A stretch of DNA of 64,000 nt. Origin: a virus. Below, one piece after another: positions 35,557 to 51,504 of this stretch. The notes under the pieces are model-generated. The model was given only the letters and a program-made list of their open reading frames with translations, did not search any database and was not told the DNA's origin. Position numbers and translations under genes: made by a program. The DNA lies in the IMG/VR virus record IMGVR_UViG_3300036860_000542, positions 1 through 64,000 of that record; one strand, 5' to 3'. The stretch's first letter is position 1; every line of letters begins with the position of its first letter.

Positions 35557-35886
35557 TTATCGGGAACGCTTGCCGAGAAAGTAGCCAAGAGCGCCCACAG
35601 CCACCATGGCGATAACGTTCATGGGGTCTTCGAGGATTCCGTCGAGTCCCTTCAAGCCCTTCGGCAGCTTCGAGTCGGCGATCTTCTTGACGCACCGCTT
35701 GAGCTTCTTGGAGTAGATGAAACCGACCGGACACGGATCCTTCGGCGGATCAGGCTCCACCAGGAGGATGCGCTCCGCTCCCCACTGCGGTCCCCAGGTG
35801 GGGTACTGGATCGGGAAGGGGTACGGGTAGAATCCTCCGCCCCGCCGATGATGCCAACCAAGTCCGGTGCGTCCCATGTTCATCAT
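35557..35886 (-). CDS. putative virion membrane protein
   Basis: GLG motifs, C-terminal hydrophobic helix followed by GKRSR. Confidence 0.6.
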   Translation of the reverse strand: MMNMGRTGLGWHHRRGGGFYPYPFPIQYPTWGPQWGAERILLVEPDPPKDPCPVGFIYSKKLKRCVKKIADSKLPKGLKGLDGILEDPMNVIAMVAVGALGYFLGKRSR

Positions 35887-36185
35887 CCTTTCAGGAGACC
35901 GTACCCAACACCAGCAAGACCCACCAGACGCGCTGTCTTGCGCTCCATGCCGAGGAGACAGGCCACACCCATCGCGAGGAGCCCGAACTGCACAGCGGGC
36001 ACCACAGAGCCCCAGGCGCCCAATCCGTCGGCGTTGCCGACGTACTGGAGCTGGGTGACGCCGCCCGTGTGGAACTTCCCGCTCAGCGGCGCCGGTGCCT
36101 CGGGCTTGCAGCACGGCTTGCCGACGTAGCAGTTGTTGCAGCACTTCTTCTTGGCGCCCTTGTGCTTCATCTGCCACCTCCGCAC
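35883..36185 (-). CDS. putative virion membrane protein
   Basis: Cys-rich basic N-terminus, DGLGA, two hydrophobic helices. Confidence 0.55.
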   Translation of the reverse strand: MRRWQMKHKGAKKKCCNNCYVGKPCCKPEAPAPLSGKFHTGGVTQLQYVGNADGLGAWGSVVPAVQFGLLAMGVACLLGMERKTARLVGLAGVGYGLLKG

Positions 36186-36631
36186 TCACAGAAATACCGA
36201 GACTTTCCGCATACTTGGCAGCGACCGTTCTTGCGAGTCGCGAGCTCGAGAGTGCTTCCACACCGCTTGCAGTGTCCGATCTCGAAGCGCTCCTCGTCGT
36301 CCTCACGACGACCGCCTGGGTGCGTCTCGGTTCGGAAGAGGCTGGGATCCGACTTGAGTCGCTCGTGGTAGGCGACGGGACAACTCTCCTGGCTGAACTT
36401 GTGGGTGGCGCGCTTGCGGCGCACGTGGACGGTGGTGGCACCACCCTTCGGATCGGTGACGACCTCGAAGCCAGCCGGCCCTGCAGCCTTGGTGAGCTCC
36501 TTCAGGAGGGCGTAGGACGTGTTATCGTCGGCGTCGAACTGCATGGTCTCGACGCCCAGAGCTGTGAGTGTGTCGTAGACGAAGGCTTCAGCAGCGCTGC
36601 CTTCGGGAACGACCGCGTAGGCTCGAGTCAC
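36167..36631 (-). CDS. hypothetical protein with C-terminal Zn ribbon
   Basis: GTG start overlapping upstream stop; CKRC, CQVC. Confidence 0.5.
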   Translation of the reverse strand: MTRAYAVVPEGSAAEAFVYDTLTALGVETMQFDADDNTSYALLKELTKAAGPAGFEVVTDPKGGATTVHVRRKRATHKFSQESCPVAYHERLKSDPSLFRTETHPGGRREDDEERFEIGHCKRCGSTLELATRKNGRCQVCGKSRYFCECGGGR

Positions 36632-37056
36632 ACGTCCCTCGCGATGTTCTTCTCGATTGCGACTCGCCACCGGCAGAGACCAAGACCGAACTCCTGGCGC
36701 CTCCCTTCCGGTAGCTCCCAAGTGCATTCGAACGGCTCGACGGAGAGCTCGCCGGTTTCCGGCTTCCAATCCATGTCCTTGCGCTCCTGGCGCACGTAGA
36801 GGGCGTGCGGGGCACCGGGCATGGAGCACTTCGGGCAGATGAGGTGGAGGACGAAACGTCCATCCGTCAAGTAGAGGTCGGACTCGATCACCCGGTCACG
36901 CCAGCGGATGAGCGGGTGACCGATAGCCGACTTCGTCATGTCGATGGACGACTGGATACCGTGCTGTGCCGACTCCCCGGACGGATCGGGGACGTCACCA
37001 GCAATGTGGTAGAGGGATTCGCGTTGAGGGTCGAAGGCAGTGCTCATGGTGTACAT
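36628..37056 (-). CDS. hypothetical Zn-binding protein
   Basis: CPKC...LSVEPF.C...C.W. Confidence 0.55.
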   Translation of the reverse strand: MYTMSTAFDPQRESLYHIAGDVPDPSGESAQHGIQSSIDMTKSAIGHPLIRWRDRVIESDLYLTDGRFVLHLICPKCSMPGAPHALYVRQERKDMDWKPETGELSVEPFECTWELPEGRRQEFGLGLCRWRVAIEKNIARDV

Positions 37057-37067
37057 CCTACCAGGAG

Positions 37068-37364
37068 CTACTTCCTCTTGCCACCACGCCTCTTCAGGAG
37101 GTAGATCCCACCGATCACTGCCACTCCGCCCAAGATCCATGGCAGGTAGCTGGGGGACTCCTGGATCGTGACCGGCGCCGCAGCCTGCCCCTTCCCGAAG
37201 ACGGAAGCGATCGCGTCGAAGCCGGACTTGATGGTCCCGCCCCAGTCTGTCTTCGCGGTGGTCGCAGCGGCCGGCTTCGGGGTCACGCTGCCAAGAATCC
37301 CACCGGTGATGCTTCCAGTGAGGGCCGGCGTCGCACCCATCCCGGTCTTGATGTACTGGCTCAT
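37068..37364 (-). CDS. tail-anchored membrane protein, MSQY paralog 3
   Basis: MSQYIKTGMGA; WILGGVAVIGGIYLLKRR. Confidence 0.75.
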   Translation of the reverse strand: MSQYIKTGMGATPALTGSITGGILGSVTPKPAAATTAKTDWGGTIKSGFDAIASVFGKGQAAAPVTIQESPSYLPWILGGVAVIGGIYLLKRRGGKRK

Positions 37365-37606
37365 TTCTTTCCTCCAGCCGCCTTGCGGCGACGCTTCAAG
37401 AAGTAGGCGCCGCCGACGAGCGCGACGGCACCAAGCAGGTACCACTTGTACGTGTCCAAGAAACCGCCCGAAGGCGCGGCGGCGGCAGCGGCAGCGCGTT
37501 CGGCAGCTCGCTTGGCGGACACGCAGCGTTCCACGCCACCGGACCTACGATGAAGTTGTCCAGGACCGCAGGTCAAACCGAGACCGATGGGAACGTACTG
37601 GCTCAT
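37361..37606 (-). CDS. tail-anchored membrane protein, MSQY paralog 2
   Basis: MSQYVPIGLGL; YKWYLLGAVALVGGAYFLKRR. Confidence 0.75.
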   Translation of the reverse strand: MSQYVPIGLGLTCGPGQLHRRSGGVERCVSAKRAAERAAAAAAAPSGGFLDTYKWYLLGAVALVGGAYFLKRRRKAAGGKK

Positions 37607-37845
37607 CGCTTTCTGCCCTTCTTGCGTCCTCGGCGCTTGAGATAGATGACTCCGCCTGCAAGCGCCATGGTACCCAGCAGGTACCACTTGTACTTGGAGA
37701 CGAAGCCTTCCTGCACCGGAGTGACCGTGGTTCCTGTTGGTCCTGTGCTCACCTTGACGCCGGCTTTGGCCAGCTGGGTGCTCAAGGTGGGAATCATCCT
37801 CGAGAAGACGCCAGGAACCGCACCAACTGCGATGTACTGGCTCAT
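37603..37845 (-). CDS. tail-anchored membrane protein, MSQY paralog 1
   Basis: MSQYIAVGA; YKWYLLGTMALAGGVIYLKRR. Confidence 0.75.
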   Translation of the reverse strand: MSQYIAVGAVPGVFSRMIPTLSTQLAKAGVKVSTGPTGTTVTPVQEGFVSKYKWYLLGTMALAGGVIYLKRRGRKKGRKR

Positions 37846-38888
37846 GACCGCCTCCGTAGGAAGAGGAAGTAGATGGCCGCCGCGCCACCGGCGTAGAGGG
37901 CCCACTTCGGCACCTTGCTCAGCATGCCGGCCGCTGCGGCTGCAGGGAGTTCAGGAGCGGCCGGGGCCGGCCCGGCATCCTCTTCGCCTTCCTCTGGGGG
38001 AGCATCAGGGCTCCACGGGCCGCTGGGACCACCGCCTCCACCACCCCCGCCACCGGCGTAGGCTTCCGGCGGAAGAGGCATGGATGGACCCGGTACGATC
38101 GGCGTGAGACTCGAGACCGGTCCTGGAGGCGACTGCACGAGCGGTTGCGCCGTCGTGGCGGATGCGAACGACTTGGTGGAGAGCGTCGCGAGCGTCGGCT
38201 TGACCAACGACCCGGTCTTGGGCAAGGAAATCGTCCGCGACGGAGCGGCCAGCTTCTCGGTGATCTGCTTGAACCAACCCTTGTGAAGGCCGCGATTGCC
38301 CGGCGCCGTCTTGGTGCCGAGTACGCGCTTCACCTTCTTCTTGGCAGCAGCACGCTGCGCAGCAGTGGGTACGAGCGGCATGGCTTTCTTGACCTCCGTC
38401 TGTTTCACAACCGCGGGCGCCGGGGCCTTCACCGGAAGGAGTACCGGGGCCGTCACAGCGGCCACGGGAAAAGTGGGGACGGTGGCCTTCGTCACAGGTG
38501 TGAGCGAAGAGACCGGCCCCGCCGGCATGGGAGCGATCAAACTTGGAGCCGCAACTCGCGTCGGCGCTGGGGCTGGCGTCGTCGAGATCGGAGCGAGTGC
38601 AGAGACGAGGCTTGGCAGAGGTGTCGCCACCGATCGGATCGGAGCGGCTGATACGACGAGCGGCTTCACCGACACCGGTGGGATGACCATCGGCTTCGCG
38701 GCCGTGGCACGAGCCACAGCAGACACTGGGGCGGCCTTGGAGACCGCAATCGGAGCCGCCTTGGGCACAGGCTTCGGGGCGGGCTTGGGCGCAGGTCTCG
38801 CCACCGCCACCACCTTCTTGACGGCGGCCACGATCGGCTTGGGGGCCGTCACCGACAGGGTGAGGCCAAGGCTGCGTCTGTACGACAT
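37842..38888 (-). CDS. Ala/Pro/Lys/Thr-rich low-complexity protein with C-terminal membrane anchor
   Basis: MSYRRSLGL start; PKPA repeats; poly-Gly linker; KWALYAGGAAAIYFLFLRRRS. Confidence 0.7.
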   Translation of the reverse strand: MSYRRSLGLTLSVTAPKPIVAAVKKVVAVARPAPKPAPKPVPKAAPIAVSKAAPVSAVARATAAKPMVIPPVSVKPLVVSAAPIRSVATPLPSLVSALAPISTTPAPAPTRVAAPSLIAPMPAGPVSSLTPVTKATVPTFPVAAVTAPVLLPVKAPAPAVVKQTEVKKAMPLVPTAAQRAAAKKKVKRVLGTKTAPGNRGLHKGWFKQITEKLAAPSRTISLPKTGSLVKPTLATLSTKSFASATTAQPLVQSPPGPVSSLTPIVPGPSMPLPPEAYAGGGGGGGGGPSGPWSPDAPPEEGEEDAGPAPAAPELPAAAAAGMLSKVPKWALYAGGAAAIYFLFLRRRS

Positions 38889-39229
38889 CAGCGCTTCCCC
38901 AGGGAGTACCCGATGAAGAAGGGGATACCCAGAACGGCGAGCGCGGCGACCGGCGCGACCCACTTGTGCTGCAGGGCGTACTTGTACGCCTTCAGGGGCG
39001 CCACCGCGTACTTGAGGCCGATACCAGCAGGCTTGGCGCCGCCAGGTTTGGCTGGCGGCTGCAGCGCGTTGATGTCCATGATGAGCCCCGTCACCTTGGG
39101 GAGTGCTGGGTCATCAAGGATCGCGGACGTGGCCTGCACAACTCCGCCCACCTTGCCGGCGTACTCGGCCACCGCGCCAGCGAGTGCTTGGCGGCGAGCT
39201 CTGCTCCGGTTGCGGTTGACGTAGCTCAT
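38888..39229 (-). CDS. putative virion membrane protein
   Basis: MSYV basic leader; C-terminal hydrophobic helix followed by GKR. Confidence 0.7.
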   Translation of the reverse strand: MSYVNRNRSRARRQALAGAVAEYAGKVGGVVQATSAILDDPALPKVTGLIMDINALQPPAKPGGAKPAGIGLKYAVAPLKAYKYALQHKWVAPVAALAVLGIPFFIGYSLGKR

Positions 39230-39337
39230 CAGATCCTCAAGTAGCCCGTCGATCTTCGTCTCCGTCCCTGAACACGTCTCCGGTAGTTCGTGCAGGGTAG
39301 GCCTCGCGAGGCCGACGGGCTAGTTCAAGAGCCGATG

Positions 39338-39949
39338 CTACTTCTTCCTCCTTCCGGCCAGACGCATCACCAGGTTGCCGACGCCCAGCTTGGTCCAGGC
39401 CAGGTAGGCGATCCCAACGATCACGCCCCACTTCATGAGCTGGCCACTGGTGTCACACTGCCAGGCGCCGTACTTGGCGATGCACTCGTACTTCTCCTTC
39501 TCCTTCGCGTAGTCGGCGTAGGAGTTGATCGCCGCCATGAGCACTAGAGCCACGGCGCCAACCACGATCAACAGGGGCAGGATGCCCTGCGCCTGCGGGC
39601 CGGAGGGCGGTGGCGCCGCGCCGACGATGATCAGTCGAGCGAGGGTCGGAGCGTCCGATGGGAGACGGACGTTCGACCCGTATACCTCGAGCAGGAGCGC
39701 TTGCATCTTCGCCGCCAGCGTCGCCTCGATCTGAGCCCGTTCGGCCGCCTCTGTTGGGGAGAGCCCGGCGCGGCTGTTCATGTCGCGGTACTTGAGCCAG
39801 TCCTTCAAGGACCGCTTCATCTTGTTGAGCTCGACTCGAGGGTTCTTCATGGGGGTAGCTCCCATCCCACCGTAGTGGATGAGCTCCGCCAACGGCGCAT
39901 CGGAATGCGGGATCTGGCGGACAGGAACGGTGTCGTAGTGCTTCGCCAC
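39338..39949 (-). CDS. putative virion membrane protein, two TM helices
   Basis: GTG start with AGGAG SD; YGGMGATPMKNP; two hydrophobic helices; basic tail. Confidence 0.7.
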   Translation of the reverse strand: MAKHYDTVPVRQIPHSDAPLAELIHYGGMGATPMKNPRVELNKMKRSLKDWLKYRDMNSRAGLSPTEAAERAQIEATLAAKMQALLLEVYGSNVRLPSDAPTLARLIIVGAAPPPSGPQAQGILPLLIVVGAVALVLMAAINSYADYAKEKEKYECIAKYGAWQCDTSGQLMKWGVIVGIAYLAWTKLGVGNLVMRLAGRRKK

Positions 39950-39957
39950 TTCGTCTC

Positions 39958-40572
39958 CTACATGTTGACGATGCGGTAGCCAGGCAGCGCGACCACGAGC
40001 TGGCCCTGCGTCGGCGGCGTCGAGCCGCTGAACGTGATGGCCTCGTAGGTCGGGGTGACGGCGATCGTCGTGTTCGGGGTGAACAGCGACGGCACCGGCA
40101 GCGGGATGACGTTCTCCGGCTGCGAGAGCAGTCCACCAGGAACCGGGGACGACTGGAAGTTGCGCTGCGACCCGGTGTCGATGAACTGGTAGCTGATGTC
40201 GATGAAGTCGGCCGCGATGGTCTGCGTGGGGAGCTGCGCCGAGCACACCGGCCGCCACCGACCGAAGTTGGTGGCGCTGGAGGGCAGCGTCGGCTTCCAC
40301 AGGATCATCGGGTAGTGGGTCATGATGAACGGGCCGTCCTGGGAGACCAGCATCTGGGCTGGGTTCCCCTGGCGACCGTTCACCGTGATGTCGAACAGCA
40401 CGGTGCCGACGAGGGTATAGAAGAGACGACGACCAGGGATGGCGTCGATCTCCTCCTGGACGGTGCGCGGCTTCTTGGCCGCCTCCTTCAGGATGTCCAT
40501 CTCCTGTCGGAGACGCATGATCTCCTGCTTGAAGGGGGCGAGGGCCTGTCTGAGGGCTGCGTTGTCGGACAT
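39958..40572 (-). CDS. putative single-jelly-roll capsid protein 2
   Basis: Short N-terminal coiled coil then about 160 aa of alternating beta-type sequence; LPVPSLF.PNTTIAV and terminal LVVALPGYR mirror the upstream gene. Confidence 0.55.
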   Translation of the reverse strand: MSDNAALRQALAPFKQEIMRLRQEMDILKEAAKKPRTVQEEIDAIPGRRLFYTLVGTVLFDITVNGRQGNPAQMLVSQDGPFIMTHYPMILWKPTLPSSATNFGRWRPVCSAQLPTQTIAADFIDISYQFIDTGSQRNFQSSPVPGGLLSQPENVIPLPVPSLFTPNTTIAVTPTYEAITFSGSTPPTQGQLVVALPGYRIVNM

Positions 40573-40713: not shown

Positions 40714-41292
40714 CTACTGGACGTCGCGGGTCTGGAGGCCGTCGATGACGAACATGATCACCTTCTCGTCATCGGTGGCGCCCGTGTTCAGGTTCACCAG
40801 GGCGTCGGTGGAGCCCACGGTGAAGAACTGGCACTGGACCGCGAAGTTCTGGCGGACCGGCACCATGATGGGCCGCGCCAGCTTCAGGATCGCCTCGTGG
40901 GTCGGATCGCCGAGGTTGAAGATGGACGTGGTGTCGTCCACCGAACCCCAGACGCCGCCGCCCGACGGGTAGTACCAGCACGGCGCCTGGAAGGCCGGCT
41001 TGTCACCCAGCGACAGGGTGAAGTAGAGCTGCGAAGCCACCCGCAGGTAGTTCGCACGACGGTTGGTGCCGTTGAAGTACAGCCAGCACCGCAGGGCCAG
41101 GATGACGTAGGTCTGATCGGACGCGAGCTGGCCGGCGACCTGGAGGTTCGTGAGGTCCAGGCGGCCGATGTTCGCGTTGCCGAACAGCACCGTGGTCTGC
41201 TGGACCACCGGCGAGGGGGTGCCGGTGGTGCGGATGATGGTGTCCCAGAACGGCTGGTGACGACGTTCCTTGACTCCGTGAAGACGAGGCAT
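40714..41292 (-). CDS. putative single-jelly-roll major capsid protein
   Basis: 192 aa, beta-rich, strong AAGGAG SD, strongly biased codons, followed by a strong hairpin; TNL..AGQL, L..PI.VP.RQNF.V, terminal FVIDG..R.VQ. Confidence 0.62.
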   Translation of the reverse strand: MPRLHGVKERRHQPFWDTIIRTTGTPSPVVQQTTVLFGNANIGRLDLTNLQVAGQLASDQTYVILALRCWLYFNGTNRRANYLRVASQLYFTLSLGDKPAFQAPCWYYPSGGGVWGSVDDTTSIFNLGDPTHEAILKLARPIMVPVRQNFAVQCQFFTVGSTDALVNLNTGATDDEKVIMFVIDGLQTRDVQ

Positions 41293-41465: not shown

Positions 41466-42881
41466 CTAGTAGCCCCAGCCCCAGCCGCCGAAGATGCCGG
41501 CGTACAGGGAGTCGAGCTTGTCGGCGGCCGGCGTCCACTGGGGGACCGTTCGGACCATCGACCTGGAGGGCACAGGGGCCAGCATGCGGGCCGTGGGGAC
41601 CGGGGCGACCATGGCAGGAGCACCGGCGGCGCCGAGCTCCTCGTAGGCACCGGTCTCCATGTACTCGCCGAGCTCCTCTTCGGCGCCCGTCTCGACGTAC
41701 TCGCCCGTCTCGACGTACTCGCCCATGTCCTGCTGGAAGGCGCCGAGGGCCTCGTCGTACACGCCCTCCGCCGCGCCCAGGGCAGCCTGGACCGACAGCG
41801 GGGCGTACGCCTTGATGAGGGCCTCGATCAGGTTCACGCCCAGGCCGATCATGATCGGCGAGTGGTACCGGGACAGGAACCGGACCTTCTTGGTGGCGAT
41901 GCTGCCCAGGACCACCATGCCGGCATGGAGGACAGGACCAGCGTGGTTGCCCAGCTTGTCCGCCACCATGCCGCCCAGGCGGCTCACGATCAGCCGGCCA
42001 CCGACCATGGCGCCGACTACCGGAAGGGCAGCCTTGGCCACGGTCATGAGCCCGCCGAGCGGGTTCTTGCGGAGGCGGAAGCCCCGCAGGATGCCACCAC
42101 GACGCCGGCCATGACGGCGCCGACGCGGGTTGTGACGCCGACGCCGACGGCGACGGGGATTCGCCAGCACGGGGGCGAAGGCATTGCGGCGACGACGCCG
42201 AGCGTGACGACGCCGACGAGGATTCCGACGAGCCTTGCGACGCCGACGCTTCCGGCGCGGGTTCATCAACGGCTCACCCGCTGTGAAGTGCCGACCACCG
42301 GCGTACTTCTTCCGCCGGGTCCGCCACGCCTTCTTGGCCGCACGACGCCGACGCGCCTTCCCGTAGCTCTTCCGGCGCACCTTGCCACGGCGGGCCTTCC
42401 GACGCTTGCGGAAGCCCTTGGGTCCGTACTTCTTCCGCCGGGTCCGCCACGCCTTGAGGGCGGCGCGACGGCGCTTGCTCGACTTCCTCTTCTTCGCCAT
42501 CGGGGTTCTCCTTCTCTTGGGCCGTCGCGCCTTCCGGCGCGGGTTGGTGTACAACAGGGCCGCGTTGCGGCGGCGACGCCTCCGGCGCGGGTTGGCCAGC
42601 GCCGTCATGTGGGGGTTCTTGCGGCGGCGCCGAGCCTTGCCGAACTTCTTGTTGTGGGCCCGCCAGTAGCGCTTGAGGCCGATCGGCATCTTGCGCGAGA
42701 TCTTCACAGGACCCTTCGGACGGCGCGCCTTGGAGCGCTTCCGCTTCGGGTTCAGGCGGGACGCCCGAACAGCAGCGAGGCCGCCGCGGGCAGTGGAAGC
42801 AGTTCGACGGGCCTTGATGAGGCCGAGCTTTCGCCGGAGGGCTGCGGTTCTTCCAGGAGGATTGACGAACCAGGTTGGCAT
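41466..42881 (-). CDS. protamine-like Arg/Lys-rich core polyprotein with membrane-associated and acidic C-terminal domains
   Basis: About 270 aa of Arg/Lys runs split by ten NP dipeptides; then hydrophobic helices; then GEYVET repeats. Confidence 0.75.
   Translation of the reverse strand: MPTWFVNPPGRTAALRRKLGLIKARRTASTARGGLAAVRASRLNPKRKRSKARRPKGPVKISRKMPIGLKRYWRAHNKKFGKARRRRKNPHMTALANPRRRRRRRNAALLYTNPRRKARRPKRRRTPMAKKRKSSKRRRAALKAWRTRRKKYGPKGFRKRRKARRGKVRRKSYGKARRRRAAKKAWRTRRKKYAGGRHFTAGEPLMNPRRKRRRRKARRNPRRRRHARRRRRNAFAPVLANPRRRRRRRHNPRRRRHGRRRGGILRGFRLRKNPLGGLMTVAKAALPVVGAMVGGRLIVSRLGGMVADKLGNHAGPVLHAGMVVLGSIATKKVRFLSRYHSPIMIGLGVNLIEALIKAYAPLSVQAALGAAEGVYDEALGAFQQDMGEYVETGEYVETGAEEELGEYMETGAYEELGAAGAPAMVAPVPTARMLAPVPSRSMVRTVPQWTPAADKLDSLYAGIFGGWGWGY
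41684..41724. repeat. 18-bp tandem repeat encoding GEYVET
   Basis: CGCCCGTCTCGACGTACT twice plus a partial copy. Confidence 0.85.
42302..42455. repeat. 31-bp direct repeat encoding KAWRTRRKKY
   Basis: Identical copies at 42302-42332 and 42425-42455. Confidence 0.85.
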
Positions 42882-43009: not shown

Positions 43010-43438
43010 TCATCTACGCCTGGGGGAGGATAGAGCGGAATCCAGCTTAGATTCCAAGCGGTTAAGAGATTCGAGAATCGACCGAAGTCGTACCTCCTGC
43101 TCCGCTTTGGATACCTCGAGCGTCTTCACACGCTCGTCGAGGGTCTTCTGCATGGCGGTGTACTCCGCCCTCGCGCTCACGAAGCTCTCCGCGTCGGGGT
43201 ACTTCCCGAGACGGAACACCGTCACCGCGATCGGCACACCCATGGTGATGACGAAGGCGCACACCCACGATGCCACCTTCGCGATCGACGGACGAAGCAT
43301 GTTCTCGATCCACGAGAACTTCGTATTGCCCTGGTTGAGGCTGTTCTTCACCTCTTCCTTGAAGTGCGCGAAGGTGTGCTCAATGACGAGCATGCGATCG
43401 CGCAGCTCCTTGAACTCTTCGGCTTCCTGTGGAGTCAT
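43010..43438 (-). CDS. membrane protein with coiled coils (holin-like candidate)
   Basis: One central TM helix flanked by heptad segments; ATGA overlap. Confidence 0.5.
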   Translation of the reverse strand: MTPQEAEEFKELRDRMLVIEHTFAHFKEEVKNSLNQGNTKFSWIENMLRPSIAKVASWVCAFVITMGVPIAVTVFRLGKYPDAESFVSARAEYTAMQKTLDERVKTLEVSKAEQEVRLRSILESLNRLESKLDSALSSPRRR

Positions 43439-44145
43439 CCGGTTATGCCTTCCGGTCTCACGTCCAGCATCCCGCCCCACAACGCGGCCTCGAGCCTCGC
43501 TCGAGGTCCCTTCACGTCGATGATGAGCAGGGCGCGACCGGAAGGAACAGCGTAGAGCTCAGGATACGGTCGCGCCTCTGCATCAGACTTCCTGCCGGCG
43601 GCGTTCTTGTACTGGAAGCCGAGACACAGGCCGAGCAGGTAGAGGCTCTCCACCTTCTTCAGCCAACTAGGAACCTCTTCCAGCGGACCCTCATCGATCA
43701 TGGAGTCCGTTGGCACGTACACACCCACTCCGGCCTCGTGCTCGTGGATGTAGTCGTTGAACTTCGACTCCCACTTGTCGGAGCGATAGAGGATGTGGTA
43801 GGCATCGCCGATGTACATGAGCTCCGAAGGCATCTGAAAGCCTTCCAGAATGCCGAACTCCTGGGGATCGAACTTGGTGAAGCGCTTGTAACCCTTCACC
43901 GCGTCCATGAAGTCGGGGGGAGGTTCAGGTGGGTTCTTTTGTGGACGCTCGCCCAACTTGCGAAACATGTCCTCTTTCGAGAAACCCAGGTATCCGTGCA
44001 TGTGATGCTTGCCCATGCCAGCGTCGGCATCAAACCAGGCGTTGCTCTGTCGATCAAAGTAGACCGTCGCGATGGTGTTGCCATCGTCGTCAACCACCAG
44101 TTGATTGCCGGTGTCCGCGTAGTCCTTGGCACGTTTCAACTTCAC
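43435..44145 (-). CDS. putative virion protein with internal KNP junction
   Basis: Two segments joined at RPQKNPPEPPP; position in structural block. Confidence 0.55.
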   Translation of the reverse strand: MKLKRAKDYADTGNQLVVDDDGNTIATVYFDRQSNAWFDADAGMGKHHMHGYLGFSKEDMFRKLGERPQKNPPEPPPDFMDAVKGYKRFTKFDPQEFGILEGFQMPSELMYIGDAYHILYRSDKWESKFNDYIHEHEAGVGVYVPTDSMIDEGPLEEVPSWLKKVESLYLLGLCLGFQYKNAAGRKSDAEARPYPELYAVPSGRALLIIDVKGPRARLEAALWGGMLDVRPEGITG

Positions 44146-44564
44146 CGAATCGCCTCCAACGTCTCGACGAAGTGGCGGTTGGAGAGCGCGCTATCTCCAC
44201 GCAGAGATCGGATTCTGGAGACGACGGTTCGAGCACTCATACCCATGATCCGCATCGCCATGGCAGCCACCCAGGCGGAACGGTTGCGGCCCGCAAAACA
44301 GGTGACGAGAACCTTCTTGCCCCTCTCCAACGCATCCGCCACCACGACCGCAGTGCGAAGCGCCCACGCACGCTCCGTCAAGGTGGGCTTGGCGTCGTCA
44401 AGGCCTACGTAGACGAGGTTCTGTCCGGTCTCTGGGAATCGAGGTTGGTACTCAAGGGCAGTGAAGACGATCATATCGAAGCCCTTCGGAAGAACCATGG
44501 GAGCCGAACCGATGAATAGGTTCGGATACACCTCAGTTCTGTCTGCGAGCTCCTTCATGTTCAT
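44142..44564 (-). CDS. dual-specificity protein phosphatase
   Basis: EVYPNLFIGS, LDD acid loop, VLVTCFAGRNRS (CX5R), R..AL.N..F. Confidence 0.85.
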   Translation of the reverse strand: MNMKELADRTEVYPNLFIGSAPMVLPKGFDMIVFTALEYQPRFPETGQNLVYVGLDDAKPTLTERAWALRTAVVVADALERGKKVLVTCFAGRNRSAWVAAMAMRIMGMSARTVVSRIRSLRGDSALSNRHFVETLEAIR

Positions 44565-44845
44565 CTCATGATGCGCCAGAGGCCGTAACCGAGCAACCCC
44601 AGGCCAATGTACAACGACCAAGAGGAGCCGCCGAGATCGAAGTCTCCCAATCCTCGAGCGATCTGGCCACGAGCAGCTGCGCCCTCACCGATTTTCCTCA
44701 CGCCAGCAGGCAGTGCCCAACCAGCTTGGTCTGAAGCCACACGGGTGCCGAGATGAGATGGTGCCTTCGGGAACGCGGCGGTCTGATGGCCGTCCTCGTA
44801 GTAGTCGTACCGGCGCAAGGCCGGCTTCCAGACCGAGTAGATCAC
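44561..44845 (-). CDS. small tail-anchored membrane protein
   Basis: RGLGDF followed by a C-terminal hydrophobic helix. Confidence 0.65.
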   Translation of the reverse strand: MIYSVWKPALRRYDYYEDGHQTAAFPKAPSHLGTRVASDQAGWALPAGVRKIGEGAAARGQIARGLGDFDLGGSSWSLYIGLGLLGYGLWRIMR

Positions 44846-45034: not shown

Positions 45035-46009
45035 CTACCTCCGCTTCTTCTTGGGCTTGAAGATGAAGAAGGCCGCGACGCCGATGCCGGCGGCGGCGAC
45101 CATGCCGTACCCGGACGTGAGGAAGTTCATGATGCCGCTTCCCAGGAGCGACGTGCCGGCGCTACCCGCGTCGGGCGACATCGATGACACGAGGCTCTGC
45201 ACGGAGGCCACCGCCTGGCCCGCGGTGCCAAGGTACTTCCTGATTATGATGGCCGTCTTGTCGGCCGAGGCCGCCACGACGAACGGACGCTGGTACTTCT
45301 CCCAGGCGATGTAGACACCCTGGAGATGGTTCGCCTCATCCGTGGTGAGCTTACGATTGTAGCGATCCAAGAATAGCTCCTTGGCCCTCCGCGCTGCGGC
45401 AGCCGCCGTCTTCGGGCCGATCTTCCCATCGATCGCCACGCCGAGGACCGTCTGGAGCTGCTTGAACTTGGTGGTCACGGCTGGGCTCTTGCCGAAGCAA
45501 TACTCCGCGCTGCCACCGCCCACACAATCGATCGACGTGCTGGGGATCGTATAGATGATGGCGGCGTCGAGCGGAGACACTGAAGCACCAAGGCTGATCG
45601 GCTCGCCGATCGCTGTGCGCTGCGTCTGCTTCCAGTTGATCTGCTTCATCGGCTTCAGGTTCCACCGCTTGTTGCGGCGGCAGAGCTTGTAGATATGCAT
45701 CCACGGAACCGCCGGCCAGTTGCGGCCCGCAACCTGAGCGATGGCAGACTGAGTCGCCGCGTTCATGAGGCCGTTTCTCGGGACGTTGAAGCCGAGCTCG
45801 TTGAGGCACTTCTGGATGCCTTGCACGACCACCATGACCGGCTGCGAGGACGGATCGCTCTCCCCAGGCGTGAGGAAGAGAGTCGGGACCGCCATGCTGG
45901 CCAGATACGGTCGCACGCCCATGTCGGCGATGATCTGCCGAACGTCGAGCGGGCCGATCGGGAACTCAGGCGCTTCGGCTTCGCCGTTCTTCTTCTCTTC
46001 CTTTGCCAT
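45035..46009 (-). CDS. membrane-anchored protein with two peptidoglycan-binding-like motifs
   Basis: VQGIQKCLNELGF....NG.M...T..AI and LQ..LGV.IDGKIGPKT..A; C-terminal TM followed by KPKKKRR. Confidence 0.65.
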   Translation of the reverse strand: MAKEEKKNGEAEAPEFPIGPLDVRQIIADMGVRPYLASMAVPTLFLTPGESDPSSQPVMVVVQGIQKCLNELGFNVPRNGLMNAATQSAIAQVAGRNWPAVPWMHIYKLCRRNKRWNLKPMKQINWKQTQRTAIGEPISLGASVSPLDAAIIYTIPSTSIDCVGGGSAEYCFGKSPAVTTKFKQLQTVLGVAIDGKIGPKTAAAAARRAKELFLDRYNRKLTTDEANHLQGVYIAWEKYQRPFVVAASADKTAIIIRKYLGTAGQAVASVQSLVSSMSPDAGSAGTSLLGSGIMNFLTSGYGMVAAAGIGVAAFFIFKPKKKRR

Positions 46010-46011
46010 GA

Positions 46012-46644
46012 TCAATCTCTCCTTCGAGTCACCAGGTGCGTGACGTAGAACGCGCCAAGACCGATGCCGGCCCACTTCATCCAAGTGGGCACGCTGGGTA
46101 GGAGCCACCAGGCGGCCTTGAATGGCGCCTTGACGATCGCCTGCGCCACGTCGTGCGCGGCTTCAGCAACCGCTTCTCCGAACATCGTGTACGCTCGCGG
46201 TGCCAAGAAGATCCCGCCGGACCGGAGCACAAGCTGTTCGGTGGACTTCCAGAAGCTCACCGCCAAGCTCTCCGGCAGAATCGAGTTGCCGTAGGCGTTC
46301 GCGAGCGCGGTGTTGATCCAACCAGTCTCCGACTGCCAGGCGGGGTACTCGCGCTTCCACGCGATACGGCCGGCGGAAGTGAGCAGCGGTGCTGCCACTC
46401 CGAATAGGAGGGCATTGAAGGCCTCATCGTTGTTCACGCGCTTGTTGACTTGCGTGAACGGCTCCTCCCAGAAGTTCTTCAGCTTCAACCATTGCGTGCC
46501 CGAGAGGTTGGGGTATCGAATGTCCGTCCGACCGGGAAGGAAGACGGAAGTCTCTCCCCAGACACGCCTCGCCTCGTTCTTCTGAGCAGCGAGCATGCCC
46601 ACGAAGTCGCGGTAGTTGACGGTCTGGACGGTGAAGTTCGCCAT
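46012..46644 (-). CDS. tail-anchored membrane protein
   Basis: WMKWAGIGLGAFYV..LV.RRRD. Confidence 0.65.
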   Translation of the reverse strand: MANFTVQTVNYRDFVGMLAAQKNEARRVWGETSVFLPGRTDIRYPNLSGTQWLKLKNFWEEPFTQVNKRVNNDEAFNALLFGVAAPLLTSAGRIAWKREYPAWQSETGWINTALANAYGNSILPESLAVSFWKSTEQLVLRSGGIFLAPRAYTMFGEAVAEAAHDVAQAIVKAPFKAAWWLLPSVPTWMKWAGIGLGAFYVTHLVTRRRD

Positions 46645-46652
46645 GGCTTACC

Positions 46653-47780
46653 TCACTTCAACAGGATGACAGCAAGGAGGATGGCGCCCCCGCCGATGGC
46701 CACCGGGATGATGGGAAAGCCACCGCCGGTAGAGCCAGCATCGCCAGGCGTCGGAGCGCAAAGACCTTGCGCCACGTCGGCGCCGGTCGAACCAGCCTGC
46801 GCGCCCTGTGGTCCACCAGCCGCCGCGCCGCCCGCCATCGCGCCGAGCTTGAGAAGGCCGCTGTTGGCGATCTTGCACGCCACCTTCCCGACCTTGTCGA
46901 GCGCGTTCTTCGCCTTGTCGGCGACCTTGCTGGCCGTCCCGGGGAAGGTGAGCGCAAGAGACGCCCCACCAGTAGCAGGAGCGAGGATGACGCCTGCTCC
47001 CTTCTTGGCGTAGCTCTTCACGGAGCTCCACAGGCCACCGAGACCATCAGCCCCAGCGCAGCACGCACCGAGACCCATGAGGCCGCTGGTGGGCGCCTTG
47101 CCCGTCTTGCCCATCTCCATGAGCTGGTCGAGCGTGTGGTTGGCAACGACGACGGTGATGGCCTTCAGGAGCGCCGTCTTCGCGTCGTACTTCTTCGCCT
47201 TCATCAGCAACTCGGCCTTGGACTCCACCGCGGCCGGGAAGCTCGAGTCGATGTTCCCAAGCACCGCCTGGAGGAAGATCTTCCTCTCGATCGGTGTCCT
47301 GAACTGGCGGGCATCGGCCATCAGCATGCCGGCGATCTGCTTGGCGAGCTGCGCCACGCCATCACGACCGCCGCCCGGAGCGTCGGCAAGCGCGCCGAGC
47401 GAGCTCCGACCAGCGAGCGTCGGGTTCGACAAGGTGCCGTACTTGCCCGCGCTCTTGTTCTCGTCGAAGATTCCGACGCCGACGCGCTCGGTGTGCTCAC
47501 GCGCCGTGACGATCTCCGGGATGAGACCGAAGATCGTCCCGCGCTTCGTGTAGTGGGTGGTTCGCACGCCCTGGCCGAGCGGTTCGTCACGGACCGACTG
47601 CGGAAGGATGTACGGAGGCCAACCGCCTGGGTTCCGCGGGTTGCGCAGGCCCTGAACGTCGATCGTCTTCCTCTTGCGGTACTTCGAGACGATAGCGCCT
47701 CGACGGAACGGCTCGTCGATGACGTTCTGCGGGATCGCGTACCCGGCGATGTAAGGAGATCCGCGTCTCAGAAGAGCCAT
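46653..47780 (-). CDS. putative virion membrane protein with several LG motifs
   Basis: AAGGAG SD; SLGA, GLMGLGA, DGLGGLW; C-terminal TM. Confidence 0.7.
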   Translation of the reverse strand: MALLRRGSPYIAGYAIPQNVIDEPFRRGAIVSKYRKRKTIDVQGLRNPRNPGGWPPYILPQSVRDEPLGQGVRTTHYTKRGTIFGLIPEIVTAREHTERVGVGIFDENKSAGKYGTLSNPTLAGRSSLGALADAPGGGRDGVAQLAKQIAGMLMADARQFRTPIERKIFLQAVLGNIDSSFPAAVESKAELLMKAKKYDAKTALLKAITVVVANHTLDQLMEMGKTGKAPTSGLMGLGACCAGADGLGGLWSSVKSYAKKGAGVILAPATGGASLALTFPGTASKVADKAKNALDKVGKVACKIANSGLLKLGAMAGGAAAGGPQGAQAGSTGADVAQGLCAPTPGDAGSTGGGFPIIPVAIGGGAILLAVILLK

Positions 47781-47781
47781 G

Positions 47782-48303
47782 TCACTTTCTCCTTTTGGAC
47801 TTGCGAGCTGCAACCTCAAGATAGCGGATCATCCGACGCAACGTGTTCACGTTGTCGTCGATCAGACCAAGAGCCATGTTGCAGATGTGGCAGAGTAACC
47901 CGCGTACCGCGCCTGTTTTATGATCGTGATCGATCGGCCACTTGTGATGATCTCTCCACGGACCACGAGTCTCTTTCGAGCCGCAAATGGCGCAGGCGTG
48001 ACCCTGTCTCTGTAGCATGCGATTGTATTCAGCATCCGTAAGACCGAACTTTCTTAGCCTTCGGGCAGCCGAACGTAGGACTTTTGTCTCCGGCGACTTT
48101 TCGTATGCGCGCCTTTCAGCTAGGTACTTTTTCCAAGCTGCAGGATCTTCTTTCTTCAGCTTCTGCTTCCAGCGCTTGATGCGTTCTCGCGCCTTCCTTT
48201 TACACTCTTCATACCAAGCAGGGTCCTCTTCGGCTTTCTTTCGATGCCAAAGGGTGGACGCGCTCTTTCCGCCCCGATCCTTCATGTACATAGTATAGCT
48301 CAT
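47782..48303 (-). CDS. endonuclease VII-type HNH (homing) endonuclease
   Basis: Q...CAIC...IDHDHKTG.VRGLLC..CN..LG; visibly more AT-rich than neighbours. Confidence 0.88.
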   Translation of the reverse strand: MSYTMYMKDRGGKSASTLWHRKKAEEDPAWYEECKRKARERIKRWKQKLKKEDPAAWKKYLAERRAYEKSPETKVLRSAARRLRKFGLTDAEYNRMLQRQGHACAICGSKETRGPWRDHHKWPIDHDHKTGAVRGLLCHICNMALGLIDDNVNTLRRMIRYLEVAARKSKRRK

Positions 48304-48857
48304 GCCACCGGCCACACCTTGGCCGCGACGACGCGCCTGAGCATCTTCCTCGTGTCGGGACCCGCTACGGGGTCGCAGACAATCCACGTTCCACTCTTCG
48401 GCTCTCGAGCCTCACAGAAGACGTGGCTGTACTGGCGTTCCTTCTTGTAGAACATGTGCCGGAATGCGCAAGTCACCACCCTCACTTCGCATCCAACGGC
48501 AAGGCACAACGCCCCGATGAGCGCTGCCATGTCGTCGCAGTCGAGGTTCGGAATCTGGCCGGTCTTCATCTGGTTGCACACCACGTAAGGCGCCTTGACA
48601 AGCTCGATGGTACGCGGATCGCGCATGTAGCGCGTGTGCGCGGAGACGAAGTTGTTGACGGCCAAGATCTCGGAGAGATAGTCCTTCGTGCGCAGACCCT
48701 GGCAGATGTCCTCAGCGAGCTGGCGCACGCACGAGTGGTTCTGCGACTCGAGCATTCCGCGGGCGATGAAGGCGACGCTATGCGGCGCCCCACGGTAGTC
48801 GAGCTTCAGAACCCTGTCATCACCAAGTCCCCACGGCACGTAGGGGACACTTTCCAC
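48300..48857 (-). CDS. transglutaminase-like (papain-fold) cysteine protease candidate
   Basis: Y..DP..E, DCDD (Cys), SHVF (His), W...DP (Asp). Confidence 0.85.
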   Translation of the reverse strand: MESVPYVPWGLGDDRVLKLDYRGAPHSVAFIARGMLESQNHSCVRQLAEDICQGLRTKDYLSEILAVNNFVSAHTRYMRDPRTIELVKAPYVVCNQMKTGQIPNLDCDDMAALIGALCLAVGCEVRVVTCAFRHMFYKKERQYSHVFCEAREPKSGTWIVCDPVAGPDTRKMLRRVVAAKVWPVA

Positions 48858-48884
48858 CGGAGAAGTCGTGGACTTACACCTGAG

Positions 48885-48914
48885 AATATACAGGACCAGG
48901 GCCTAGGGGTGCAA
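48885..48914 (-). promoter_or_regulatory. sigma70-like promoter
   Basis: Minus strand TTGCAC-18 nt-TATATT. Confidence 0.55.
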
Positions 48915-48918
48915 CTTG

Positions 48919-50559
48919 CTACTCGACGGGCGGGGATTCCGTGGGGACTTCAGGGGCTTCCGCAGGCGGCGCTTCGTCTTCGGTCATGCCGAGCATGGCC
49001 GCAACGCACTTCCTCAGCCAGTTCCGACCGCGCTGCGAGTACAGGATCGACCCGTCCGGCGGGTTGGCGGCCTGAATGAAGGCGTCCGGTCCCATTTGCC
49101 GGAGAGCGGAGATGATCTCCGTGGGCACCATCGAGCGTGCCGAGACGGCGAAGGCCATCGGATCTGTCCCATTGGTGATGGCCTGCTCGACGAACTGCAT
49201 CGCCGCCGCGACCTCCATCGGGTTCAACTCGATGACGTGACCCTGAGAAGGCGCTTGCGGCTTCGGCTTGCGAGTCGAAACCACTGCGGTCTCGCCCTGT
49301 GCTGCGGCACGCGCTGCTTGCGCCGCTCTCTTCCGCTTCAGCACCTCCGGGTTCACCTGAGGAGGAGCAGCGGGCGGGGCGTTCTCGACTCGAGACGCCA
49401 CAGCCTGTGCCATCGGGCTCTGCATCACGGTCTGCAGCACACGCTCCCAAGTGGAAGCCGGCTCCTGTTCGCCAGGACCGAGGATCTCGAGAGCATTCTT
49501 GAGCTGCGCCACCTGCTCGACGGCGTCGAGAGGACCCTTCTCCTTGATGTCGCGCAGCTTCGCGCACTCGGTCTTCGACTCGGCGAGCTGCCTCTCGAGG
49601 TCGGCGACCCGACCCTTGAAGCCGTCGAGCCGGGCCTCGTAGCTCTGCTCGACGGACTTCAACGCCTGGCCATGCGTCTCGCGCAGCATGCTGATCTCAC
49701 GATCGTGCGAGCGATCGCGTCTCTCGAGCTCCGCTTGAAGGCGAGTGCGCTCCGCTTCGACGTCATGGCGATTGTTCTCTCGGAGGGTACGCAGCTCCGA
49801 GTCGAACTGAGCCCGCAGTGCATCGATGCGCCCGGACTCGCCCGCCACCAGGTGCTCGAACGTCTTCTCGATCACCGACGGTGTGGACGGTGTCTTGTTG
49901 GCGTTCGTGATGAGGTTGAGGATCTGGGCATCCTTCTCCGCCATCTGCCGACGCATCTCCATCATCTCTTGCTGCAGCATCTTGACGGCCGGCGGATCGA
50001 AGGCGAGCTTCATGAGCTCCGCATCGCCTCCGCCCTTCTTGCGGTTCTCGTCCTCGAGCTCCCAGGCTCTCTTCTGGCTGAGCTCTGCGGCGCGGGCCAT
50101 GTGGTCGAGGGCCTTGCCCTGCAGGGCGACATCGTCACCGTCCTTGAGCATGGTCTTGGGGGCACCGGGCGTCTCGGCAAGCAGCGCACCACTCAGCCGC
50201 GGATCACCTTCGATCTCGAACGACTTCGCACCCGCGTAGGTCCAACCGCCCTTCGGGTTCGGTCGGAACGTCTTCACCTGGTACTTGCCGCCACCGAAGC
50301 GCTGCTTGATGTCTTTCTCGTCGAAGGGCTCGTCGTACTCCTCCAGGAAGCCGGCGATGTGGTGGCCTTGCCACTCACGAGGGTATTTCCTCTCGAGCTT
50401 GATCTTGAGCGCACCCGAGGTGCCGAGCTCCTGGAGCCACTCGAAGATGGACTTGTCCTCCGCCTGCGCGATCGTCTGCGCGGACATGGACACGTCCTCC
50501 TTCTGCTTGCCCTTGAGCGGCGTCACAGGTGCGACGTCATCGTAGGTCTGTTCACTCAT
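48919..50559 (-). CDS. large coiled-coil protein (assembly/scaffold candidate)
   Basis: AAGGAG SD; N-terminal globular part, about 200 aa of heptads, helical C-terminal domain. Confidence 0.7.
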   Translation of the reverse strand: MSEQTYDDVAPVTPLKGKQKEDVSMSAQTIAQAEDKSIFEWLQELGTSGALKIKLERKYPREWQGHHIAGFLEEYDEPFDEKDIKQRFGGGKYQVKTFRPNPKGGWTYAGAKSFEIEGDPRLSGALLAETPGAPKTMLKDGDDVALQGKALDHMARAAELSQKRAWELEDENRKKGGGDAELMKLAFDPPAVKMLQQEMMEMRRQMAEKDAQILNLITNANKTPSTPSVIEKTFEHLVAGESGRIDALRAQFDSELRTLRENNRHDVEAERTRLQAELERRDRSHDREISMLRETHGQALKSVEQSYEARLDGFKGRVADLERQLAESKTECAKLRDIKEKGPLDAVEQVAQLKNALEILGPGEQEPASTWERVLQTVMQSPMAQAVASRVENAPPAAPPQVNPEVLKRKRAAQAARAAAQGETAVVSTRKPKPQAPSQGHVIELNPMEVAAAMQFVEQAITNGTDPMAFAVSARSMVPTEIISALRQMGPDAFIQAANPPDGSILYSQRGRNWLRKCVAAMLGMTEDEAPPAEAPEVPTESPPVE

Positions 50560-51067
50560 CGGAATCTCCTTCGGGTTCGTCGTTGGATTCCTCGACGGCC
50601 TCATCCGCATCACCCTCGGGGTCTCCAGCTTCCTCGCTCTCATCCGAGGTCGTATGCTCCTCGACGGCCTCCGCCGTGAGCTCGAACGCGGTGAGGTACG
50701 CGGCGGCCTGGCCCTGCAGACGCTTGGCCGTGGTGTCATCGAGAGGGACGCCGGCCTTCATCTTGGCGACCTCGTCCGCGATGACCTTCCCCAGCTCGAG
50801 GGTAGCCAGGATCTGATCAGCGAGCTCGGGTTGGATCAGACTGTCGGACCCATCGATGAGAGCGTCCATCGCCTGCTCGAGACGCACGATGCGAGCTCCG
50901 AAGTGATCCGCCATCGTCTGCATGAGCGGGTAGGCGTTGTCACGGAACTCGTTCTTCGCCTCGATGAACTTGGCCTTGGAGACGCGCTGCTCCGCTTTCG
51001 CCAAGTCCTCCATCAGGAAGGCATGCTCCTCTTGTCCTTCGGTGGTGTCTTCCGGCTTGTCCATCAC
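50552..51067 (-). CDS. helical protein with acidic tail
   Basis: ORF overlapping both neighbours; Glu/Asp-rich C-terminus. Confidence 0.7.
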   Translation of the reverse strand: MMDKPEDTTEGQEEHAFLMEDLAKAEQRVSKAKFIEAKNEFRDNAYPLMQTMADHFGARIVRLEQAMDALIDGSDSLIQPELADQILATLELGKVIADEVAKMKAGVPLDDTTAKRLQGQAAAYLTAFELTAEAVEEHTTSDESEEAGDPEGDADEAVEESNDEPEGDSDE

Positions 51068-51504
51068 TTCTTCTCCTTCTTGCGAGGCGCCAGGTAACGC
51101 TGGCGAGCGTGTTCACGATTCGCGATGTCCATAGGGTCCATGGGGACCCACTCGGAGCATTCGAAGACGCAGTCATCGGTGAGGTCGAGCTCCACACCAG
51201 GGATGACCTTGCAGATGCGGTTGATCTGCCTTGGCGCCCGATCGAGGCCTCTCGACTCCACCTCCGCGAAGGAGTGGATCTCGATGTAGTGACGACAGGG
51301 ACCACGTAGGCAAACGAAGTTGTCCGGGCTGGCCTTCGGAAGCGGTTCGGGTCTCCCAAGGTACCCGACCATGTTCGGGCCGCCGTCCTTCGCCGGAGGC
51401 GGCGCCGGGTCCGGTTCCACGTCCTTCCAGGGGTCGAGCTCCTTTCGCTTCTCGTCGTCGAGCTTGTCGCCGTCTTTACCCACCTGCCGGTTGCCGATCT
51501 TCAT
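51064..51504 (-). CDS. Cys-containing hypothetical protein, first gene of leftward block
   Basis: GGAG SD; C...C.H, C...C..C. Confidence 0.7.
   Translation of the reverse strand: MKIGNRQVGKDGDKLDDEKRKELDPWKDVEPDPAPPPAKDGGPNMVGYLGRPEPLPKASPDNFVCLRGPCRHYIEIHSFAEVESRGLDRAPRQINRICKVIPGVELDLTDDCVFECSEWVPMDPMDIANREHARQRYLAPRKKEKK

Follow-up and report, generated by a model that had tools for sequence, protein, structure and literature searches.

The 64,000-nucleotide stretch analyzed here (the window) comprises positions 1 to 64,000 of the IMG/VR virus record IMGVR_UViG_3300036860_000542 (G000), and its positions 35,557–51,504 hold a block of 16 kb that is a candidate virion-morphogenesis module. 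Every credible gene of this block lies on the minus strand, as an earlier note on this DNA had described. The same note took the block to be bounded on both sides, which holds for the right end, where the strand switches near 51.5–52.4 kb, but not for the left end, where minus-strand genes run on into glycan genes to ~30.6 kb. Two adjacent β-rich genes, here named A and B, are found where the note had placed them. Its estimate of about 12 membrane-anchored proteins is also borne out: at least 10 block products have, by eye, a hydrophobic segment followed by K/R at the end, in addition to a gene for a protein with two transmembrane segments that had been missed (Table 1).

The G000 record carries a viral classification and direct terminal repeats. 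The contig measures 82,417 bp; the 127 bases at its start are repeated at its end, so that 82,290 bp are unique. Three complete relatives (G001, G002, and G003; 79,908, 82,646, and 83,535 bp) were found via protein A; all carry direct terminal repeats, and CheckV rates each as 100% complete. Many A-bearing contigs are 78–88 kb long, and one reaches 111,902 bp. Given the 127-bp terminal overlap, the 100%-complete relatives with terminal repeats, and the clustering of A-bearing contigs at 78–88 kb, we take G000 as a complete, circularly assembled virus genome of which the window is the first 64 kb. The lineage, previously put at a minimum of 64 kb, thus has a complete genome of 82.3 kb, and the search for tailed-phage genes could cover all of it. 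A tRNA scan finds none, and promoter and terminator scans give counts at the level of shuffled sequences.

AlphaFold2 models, computed from alignments of 51 homologues of A and 59 homologues of B, predict an eight-stranded jelly roll for both proteins, as had been proposed. Model A has a predicted local distance difference test (pLDDT) score of 72.1 and a predicted template modeling (pTM) score of 0.69; model B has a pLDDT of 88.9 and a pTM of 0.75 and carries an extra N-terminal helix of 30 residues. Each protein is predicted as a single barrel of ~160–190 residues. Among the solved structures closest to them are single-jelly-roll capsid proteins from SPV1, SH1, HHIV-2, HCIV-1, and P23-77, the kind of neighbor that the note had expected. 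With A, the top Foldseek match in the Protein Data Bank (PDB) is SH1, and SPV1, HHIV-2, and HCIV-1 small capsid chains come next (E 1.6e-3 to 2e-2); with B, Foldseek ranks P23-77 VP17 first, followed by HHIV-2, SPV1, HCIV-1, and SH1 large chains. Neither protein has a Foldseek match in the PDB at E ≤ 0.001. An exhaustive VIA search of 48,161 chains with B puts a PBCV-1 capsid chain (7.8), SPV1 (7.6), and HHIV-2 (7.5) on top; of the nine best matches in this unbiased search, seven come from vertical jelly-roll viruses, as their capsid, penton, or scaffold proteins. For A the best match in the PDB is the SPV1 capsid protein, which ranks second (tied within 1 Z) for B. At the sequence level, searches of A and B against solved structures, VP16 and VP17 included, give nothing credible at E ≤ 10 (the best are a chitinase at E 0.24 and YcnI at E 0.011), and tblastn finds no match to A in GenBank phages. 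DUF7592, precomputed on one of 120 listed A homologues, has no match here, and we regard it as a chance assignment. The similar C-terminal patterns once noticed in A and B do not survive profile–profile comparison, as hhalign gives a probability of 0.5% and detects no relation. A complex prediction of A with B residues 37–204 scored 0.00 in both runs, which had no controls, and is not used as evidence either way.

The genes for A and B rank 1st and 3rd among 80 open reading frames (ORFs) by G+C content at third codon positions (GC3). The identity of A across genomes is 67–71% (tblastn), vs 25–45% for the other core proteins. In longer members of the A family the N- and C-termini of A are kept and large insertions lie between them, as in the towers of capsid proteins; by eye, these are loop insertions and add no second barrel. 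A diverged second A paralogue of 248 residues is encoded far from the main block in G002 (33969–34715, minus strand; L011) and G003 (33954–34700, plus strand; L016), and is possibly a penton or an alternative shell protein; none was found in G000. The A gene of G003 is split (L015 14244–15669), residues 1–45 being encoded at 14244–14378 and residues 17–192 at 15118–15669. The intervening ~740 bp carry an ORF with a LAGLIDADG-type motif; homing elements split conserved essential genes in this way. Rfam gives no match in the morphogenesis block or in this G003 insertion, and recognizes no group I intron in the latter. By codon bias and conservation A and B look abundant, and they are putative major capsid proteins.

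Directly upstream of A in nine of nine loci is a gene of the polybasic type. Of the first 275 residues of the polybasic protein, 124 are K/R and one is D/E; beyond them come a hydrophobic segment and an acidic tail. The same architecture recurs in G001–G003, and the protein has no match in Pfam or PHROGs. The anchored block proteins share a pattern, a Gly-rich hydrophobic stretch with K/R at the very end, and their C-terminal anchors are kept in orthologues. By an automatic criterion, 8 of 24 block ORFs vs 6 of 96 ORFs elsewhere have such a tail anchor (Fisher one-sided p = 0.0011); one of the eight is a plus-strand ORF and probably spurious, and the criterion missed four anchors that are clear by eye. 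The same C-terminal anchor is borne by an M23 peptidase encoded outside the window (L001 4714–5334).

BLAST clustering of the proteins of G000–G003 yields 11 families present in all four genomes, eight encoded in the block and three outside it. The eight are the polybasic protein, A, the coiled-coil protein, and the 170-, 113-, 236-, 94-, and 388-residue proteins. The three are the ParB-like protein, a J-domain protein (L001 2137–2580; DnaJ E 8e-6, just under the cut-off), and a 133-residue protein (L001 3423–3824). B, the phosphatase, and the peptidoglycan-binding protein are each called in three genomes, and tblastn finds B in G001 also. Five further loci, from metagenome-assembled bins, have the block genes in the same order; in one of them A is only 44% identical. 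No replication or glycan gene is common to the four genomes: G001 and G002 lack counterparts of the family A DNA polymerase–uracil-DNA glycosylase (PolA-UDG), ribonucleotide reductase (RNR), ThyX, Sak4, the helicases, and every part of the glycan module, and G003 has few such counterparts. The note had joined the virion to a tailed-phage-style replication module. PolA-UDG, a class II-type RNR, ThyX, and Sak4 are indeed confirmed in G000, but they are not shared with the three complete relatives and so are no property of the lineage; the replication module is exchangeable. Judged by gene families, the block is the only large module common to the three complete relatives, and it is what defines the lineage. 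Compared with G001–G003, the replication, nucleotide-metabolism, and glycan genes of window positions 1–35,500 and 52,400–64,000 show wholesale module exchange.

Table 1 Features of the candidate morphogenesis block and the conserved ParB-like gene (positions in the window; aa, amino acids)
Feature	Position	Strand	Basis
First two block genes: 146-aa Cys-containing and 171-aa acidic helical proteins	50552–51504	−	146-aa homologue at same position in L024
Coiled-coil protein, ~546 aa, candidate scaffold or size-determining protein	48919–50559 (ORF reaches 50739)	−	In 4/4 genomes, 27–37% identity
Transglutaminase-core (papain-like Cys-His-Asp) protein, 185 aa, candidate maturation protease	48300–48857	−	Pfam Transglut_core E 3.5e-6, above cut-off
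Endonuclease VII/HNH-type gene	47782–48387	−	Pfam Endonuclease_7 E 7e-23; no homologue in G001–G003
Gly/Ala-rich 388-aa protein, C-terminal membrane anchor	46653–47819	−	In 4/4 genomes, C-terminal hydrophobic segment kept in each
210-aa protein, C-terminal anchor	46012–46644	−	Hydrophobic segment then TRRRD
Peptidoglycan-binding 357-aa protein, C-terminal anchor, candidate entry factor	45035–46108	−	Anchor then KPKKKRR; homologues in G001, G003
Two small tail-anchored proteins, 94 and 62 aa	44561–45030	−	94-aa family in 4/4 genomes
Dual-specificity phosphatase-like protein	44142–44621	−	Pfam DSPc E 3.6e-9; G001, G002 homologues located elsewhere
236-aa conserved core protein	43435–44145	−	In 4/4 genomes plus L024, L025
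156-aa coiled-coil protein, central membrane segment	43010–43480	−	Translation
Polybasic protein, 471 aa, candidate DNA-condensing core protein, membrane-linked	41466–42881	−	K/R composition
Single-jelly-roll protein A (192 aa), candidate major capsid protein	40714–41292	−	Predicted structure
Protein B, 204 aa (P0121), putative second jelly-roll shell protein (second major capsid protein or penton), N-terminal 30-residue helix	39958–40572	−	Predicted structure
Missed gene, ~175-aa protein with two transmembrane segments, basic C-terminus	39338–39865	−	GC3 0.85; tblastn vs G001/G002 208-aa proteins E 7e-13
113-aa tail-anchored protein	38888–39229	−	In 4/4 genomes, anchor kept
Pro/Ala-rich tail-anchored protein and two small tail-anchored proteins	37068–38888	−	Translations; 373-aa ORF without family match
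170-aa Cys-containing conserved core protein	36628–37140	−	In 4/4 genomes plus L020, L022, L024
Last block gene, C-terminal anchor then KRSR	35557–36444	−	True start probably internal
ParB-N/KorB-like protein, 553 aa, only large conserved gene outside the block	61036–62697	+	Pfam ParB_N E 1.2e-6; PHROG ParB-like E 5e-17; 4/4 genomes

Several further block proteins bear on virion assembly and entry. The transglutaminase-like gene accompanies A-like genes even in distant relatives (L020, L022, L024, L025, L076, L091, and L094). The family profile of the coiled-coil protein matches only coiled-coil proteins in the PDB, and an Atlas search with the protein returns unnamed clusters only. The peptidoglycan-binding protein has sub-threshold matches to PG_binding_3 (E 1.4e-4) and PG_binding_1 (E 7e-4) and weak matches to endolysin PHROGs. 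The 388-residue protein has no family match, and its family profile has no PDB match; the profile of the 236-residue family has no credible PDB match; and the 210-residue protein has no match in PHROGs or Pfam. The endonuclease VII/HNH gene, absent from the relatives, is probably a mobile insertion and no part of the conserved core.

Searches of the block proteins for families of terminases, portals, HK97 capsids, tape measures, and baseplates gave no match (10 proteins searched with PHROGs at E ≤ 0.01 and 20 with Pfam at E ≤ 0.1), in agreement with what the earlier note had read from the ORFs. The same is true of the whole contig, in which none of the 29 ORFs of at least 250 residues matches such a family at E ≤ 0.01 (Pfam and/or PHROGs). 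Six-frame searches with Terminase_6N, TerL_ATPase, Phage_portal, Phage_capsid, and FtsK_SpoIIIE (PF03237, PF03354, PF04860, and PF05065 for tailed-phage head genes; PF01580 for FtsK/HerA) give no match in any of the four complete genomes at E ≤ 10. The same tool recovers ThyX in G000 at E 7.5e-24, indicating that the six-frame family search works on this genome. A Walker-A scan of G000 finds four convincing P-loop proteins (Sak4-like, Dda-like, SNF2, and a 549-residue protein); in G001, where the pattern has three short matches, all of them in non-ATPase contexts, it finds no convincing P-loop ORF. The four genomes have no conserved P-loop protein. To our knowledge, there is no terminase without a P-loop. 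The 549-residue protein was considered as a packaging ATPase and rejected because it is absent from G001–G003 and hence not core; it has no PDB match, no match to PF19263, only four homologues, and an Atlas lead to DUF5906/VapE helicases (0.93–0.94). A 405-residue protein (56292–57509) and a 445-residue protein (57609–58946) were likewise rejected as a hidden capsid or portal: they have no PDB matches and are not common to all relatives, and well-studied tailed phages carry homologues of them as unannotated 'hypothetical' genes.

On balance, we lean toward the reading that the block is the virion-morphogenesis module of a widespread lineage of large (~80–88 kb) tailless bacterial viruses with an internal membrane and an SPV1-like, motor-less encapsidation. 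The particle, as deduced from its genes, would be built as follows. A, alone or with B, would form an outer icosahedral shell over a lipid vesicle studded with tail-anchored proteins, B being either a second hexon component, as in Halopanivirales, or a penton, like SPV1 VP10. The basic C-termini of the anchored proteins and the polybasic protein would face and condense the DNA, and the particle would assemble around the genome in nucleoprotein form, without a motor to pump it in, in the way that has been described for SPV1. With no motor gene and with basic tails on a dozen membrane proteins, condensation of the DNA on the inner face of the membrane vesicle is probably the simplest arrangement. 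The coiled-coil protein may serve as scaffold or ruler, the transglutaminase-fold enzyme may mature virion proteins, and the peptidoglycan-binding protein and the tail-anchored M23 peptidase may open the cell wall at entry.

The same genes could instead make a non-icosahedral, pleomorphic or vesicle-like particle, with a lipid envelope around DNA that the polybasic protein condenses, and with A and B in the role of matrix or spike proteins. The missing packaging motor, the very numerous membrane proteins, the hydrophobic domain of the polybasic protein, and the lack of a confidently identified penton protein in G000 would all suit such a particle. We nevertheless regard it as unlikely, since the structures most similar to A and B belong to shell proteins from icosahedral membrane viruses and A is extremely conserved with variable loop insertions, like lattice-forming capsid proteins. 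Moreover, the diverged A paralogue of G002 and G003 could be the penton.

Several observations weigh against a tailless virion with a jelly-roll shell. The CheckV completeness of G000 itself is only 50%, and the pLDDT of model A is only 72. A Foldseek search of BFVD with B is non-discriminating, giving a mixed jelly-roll list that includes tailed-phage 'virion structural proteins' and has SPV1 VP4 at rank 38. The absence of HK97-type genes rests on sequence profiles, folds having been predicted for A and B only. The coiled-coil protein (as a 606-residue ORF) has a sub-threshold Pfam match to Linocin_M18, an HK97-fold family (E 0.048, 40 residues), and outside the window a 669-residue protein has a sub-threshold Phage_cement_2 match and two proteins of a rightward block match the PHROG 'virion structural protein' family phrog_10356. 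Finally, the A-like gene of one distant locus (L094), possibly a provirus, is flanked by chromosomal-looking genes (sigma-54 activator, RecQ, and aminotransferase), so the A fold family is not confined to 80-kb viruses.

The matches in BFVD, Linocin_M18, phrog_10356, and Phage_cement_2, together with the limitation of fold prediction to two proteins, could be accommodated by a highly divergent tailed phage whose HK97-fold capsid, portal, and terminase have become unrecognizable by sequence, A and B then being decoration, cement, or fiber proteins. This would, however, require that terminase, portal, and capsid escape family searches in four complete genomes, one of which (G001) shows no convincing P-loop protein at all. 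The conserved large proteins also fit such a phage badly, being a 546-residue coiled coil, a Gly/Ala-rich, membrane-anchored protein of 388 residues, and a ParB-like protein that lacks an ATPase motif, and a dozen tail-anchored proteins in a head module is no trait of tailed phages. We consider a disguised tailed phage quite unlikely.

Relatives of A and B are widespread. Among 690 candidate 90% clusters, 654 are related to A; for B the figure is 417 of 647. A profile of A retrieves 459 50% clusters at E ≤ 1e-3, 125 at 1e-10, and 31 at 1e-30. A distant A-like subfamily (alignment A3; L026–L105, e.g., L076 10001–12154 and L094 7878–10828) occupies at least 390 loci in soil-type metagenome contigs. 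These loci keep a transglutaminase-like gene close by, the A-like gene is sometimes doubled in tandem, and no Walker-A neighbor is conserved. Searches of the viral contig collection with P0324 and alignment A3 give no locus.

The L094 locus, where a distant A-like and transglutaminase-like pair sits among apparently chromosomal genes, raises the question of whether the block makes a virion at all. Since ParB-like and integrase genes are present, G000 could be a plasmid-like replicon with a block that serves a cell-envelope or surface structure, such as fibers of jelly-roll proteins cross-linked by the transglutaminase-like enzyme. Such a replicon seems to us very improbable. The Walker-A scans reveal no relaxase, coupling protein, or VirB4-type ATPase; the records carry a viral classification and terminal repeats; the genome size is held tightly at ~80–88 kb, as expected if it is capsid-limited; phage-type replication and lysis-type enzymes are encoded; and a DNA-condensing domain of 124 charges has no obvious role in a surface structure.

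The peptidoglycan-binding, M23, and J-domain proteins indicate a bacterial host for the lineage. Six look-alike contigs are found in bacterial bins (three Gemmatimonadota, one Galbitalea, one Peribacteria, and one Kiloniellales) and none in archaeal bins, the binning of free viral contigs being weak host evidence.

Among known viruses, SPV1 (Portogloboviridae) is the closest analogue. According to the ICTV profile (PMC8459092) and PMC8812541, the SPV1 shell consists of two single-jelly-roll proteins, many membrane proteins lie below the capsomers in an inner lipid layer, the DNA is stored in a nucleoprotein core, and the genome includes genes for a glycosyltransferase and a methyltransferase; PMC8812541 describes the virus as having no packaging ATPase. 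The genes of the G000 lineage suggest a similar combination, with two putative single-jelly-roll shell proteins, membrane proteins, a candidate DNA-coating protein, no packaging ATPase found, and genes for glycosyltransferases and methyltransferases. Unlike SPV1, with a 20-kb genome, a hyperthermophilic archaeal (Sulfolobales) host, and no polymerase, G000 has 82 kb, PolA, RNR, ThyX, and peptidoglycan-directed proteins, and its polybasic protein has 471 residues and a membrane domain. No sequence similarity was found between SPV1 and proteins A and B. The present lineage thus works most like SPV1, yet it is not a member of Portogloboviridae, whose viruses have archaeal hosts and genomes of ~20 kb without a polymerase.

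The earlier note had looked instead to Halopanivirales (P23-77, SH1, HHIV-2, and HCIV-1). Like these viruses, G000 has two adjacent genes for proteins of unequal size and no mutual sequence similarity that are modeled as single jelly rolls and are putatively its major capsid proteins, and it probably has an internal membrane. In Halopanivirales the barrels stand vertical to the shell and make up heterohexameric capsomers. These viruses differ in having an FtsK/HerA packaging ATPase and genomes of 16–31 kb (as given in parts of PMC12642351 and PMC12643093), against 82 kb. Membership fails on the absent packaging ATPase and on genome size, and the proposed kinship finds no support either: the hallmark ATPase is missing from all four genomes (PF01580, 0 matches), A and B have no sequence match to VP16 or VP17, and the best structural neighbor is SPV1. 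Helvetiaviruses in general encode FtsK/HerA packaging ATPases, according to the account in PMC8812541.

Tectiviridae, Corticoviridae, and Autolykiviridae, of the PRD1 or double-jelly-roll type, likewise lack a tail and have an internal membrane that bears small viral membrane proteins and cell-wall enzymes, features that the G000 genes suggest as well. They differ in having one double-jelly-roll capsid protein and mostly a packaging ATPase, and the part of PMC8812541 that treats prokaryotic double-jelly-roll viruses gives their genomes as <20 kbp. The two fused jelly rolls in one capsid protein that mark Bamfordvirae are not found here, A and B being modeled as one barrel each. Nor do profile searches detect in any of the four genomes the large terminase, portal, and HK97-fold capsid of Caudoviricetes. 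A further analogy, for which no homology is claimed, is the adenovirus core (VII, mu, and adenain), in which arginine-rich proteins condense double-stranded DNA and are matured by a papain-like cysteine protease inside a jelly-roll capsid. Adenovirus is unlike G000 in being eukaryotic and in having a double-jelly-roll hexon, an IVa2 packaging ATPase, and no membrane.

Outside the block, the ParB-like protein has no ATPase motif, and no ParA-type ATPase gene lies beside it. The family A DNA polymerase (10115–13051) carries, as fusions, an N-terminal uracil-DNA glycosylase-superfamily domain and a 3′–5′ exonuclease domain. A long glycan run (19732–35519), which follows the block immediately downstream without a change of strand, encodes glycosyltransferases, nucleotide-sugar epimerase/dehydratase-like proteins, and methyltransferases, and a tyrosine integrase gene lies at 27623–28582. 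The 405- and 445-residue pair (56292–58946) is highly codon-biased; the second protein has weak GHKL-ATPase matches, and homologues occur in diverse tailed phages (Croceibacter P2559S, Escherichia 4MG, and Vibrio phages). Beyond the window, a rightward block (genome 66820–76060, numbered 2820–12060 in L001) encodes the tail-anchored M23 peptidase, the two phrog_10356 proteins, a GDSL lipase, and the 669-residue protein with the weak cement-like match. It is mostly not conserved in the relatives and may encode variable vertex or host-recognition proteins. Searches of a 490-residue protein and the 669-residue protein against the PDB with phmmer give nothing credible, and tblastn against GenBank phages gives three short matches for a 372-residue protein of the rightward block and none for the 669-residue protein.

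Bacterial jelly-roll viruses with an internal membrane are described with genomes below ~20–30 kb, and large double-stranded DNA phages are assigned to the tailed HK97 lineage, in the parts of PMC8812541, PMC12642351, and PMC12643093 that concern them. A full-text literature search found no description of a ~80-kb bacterial virus with single-jelly-roll capsid genes. More tentatively, and with considerable doubt, we suggest a deep (order- to realm-level), globally abundant lineage of bacterial viruses that encloses an 80-kb genome without a packaging nucleoside triphosphatase, a membrane-anchored, protamine-like protein condensing the DNA under a lipid vesicle and a single-jelly-roll shell, with replication modules freely exchanged around a fixed core. 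Such a lineage would represent, among bacterial viruses, the portoglobovirus state from which Helvetiavirae have been proposed to descend. If this is true, common single-jelly-roll bacterial viruses of 80–88 kb would break the genome-size rule stated above, and automatic pipelines would be labeling such genomes as tailed phages by default, as in the Atlas taxon labels. Motor-less nucleoprotein encapsidation would be added to bacterial virology, and the proposed evolutionary path from portogloboviruses to helvetiaviruses would gain a bacterial test case.

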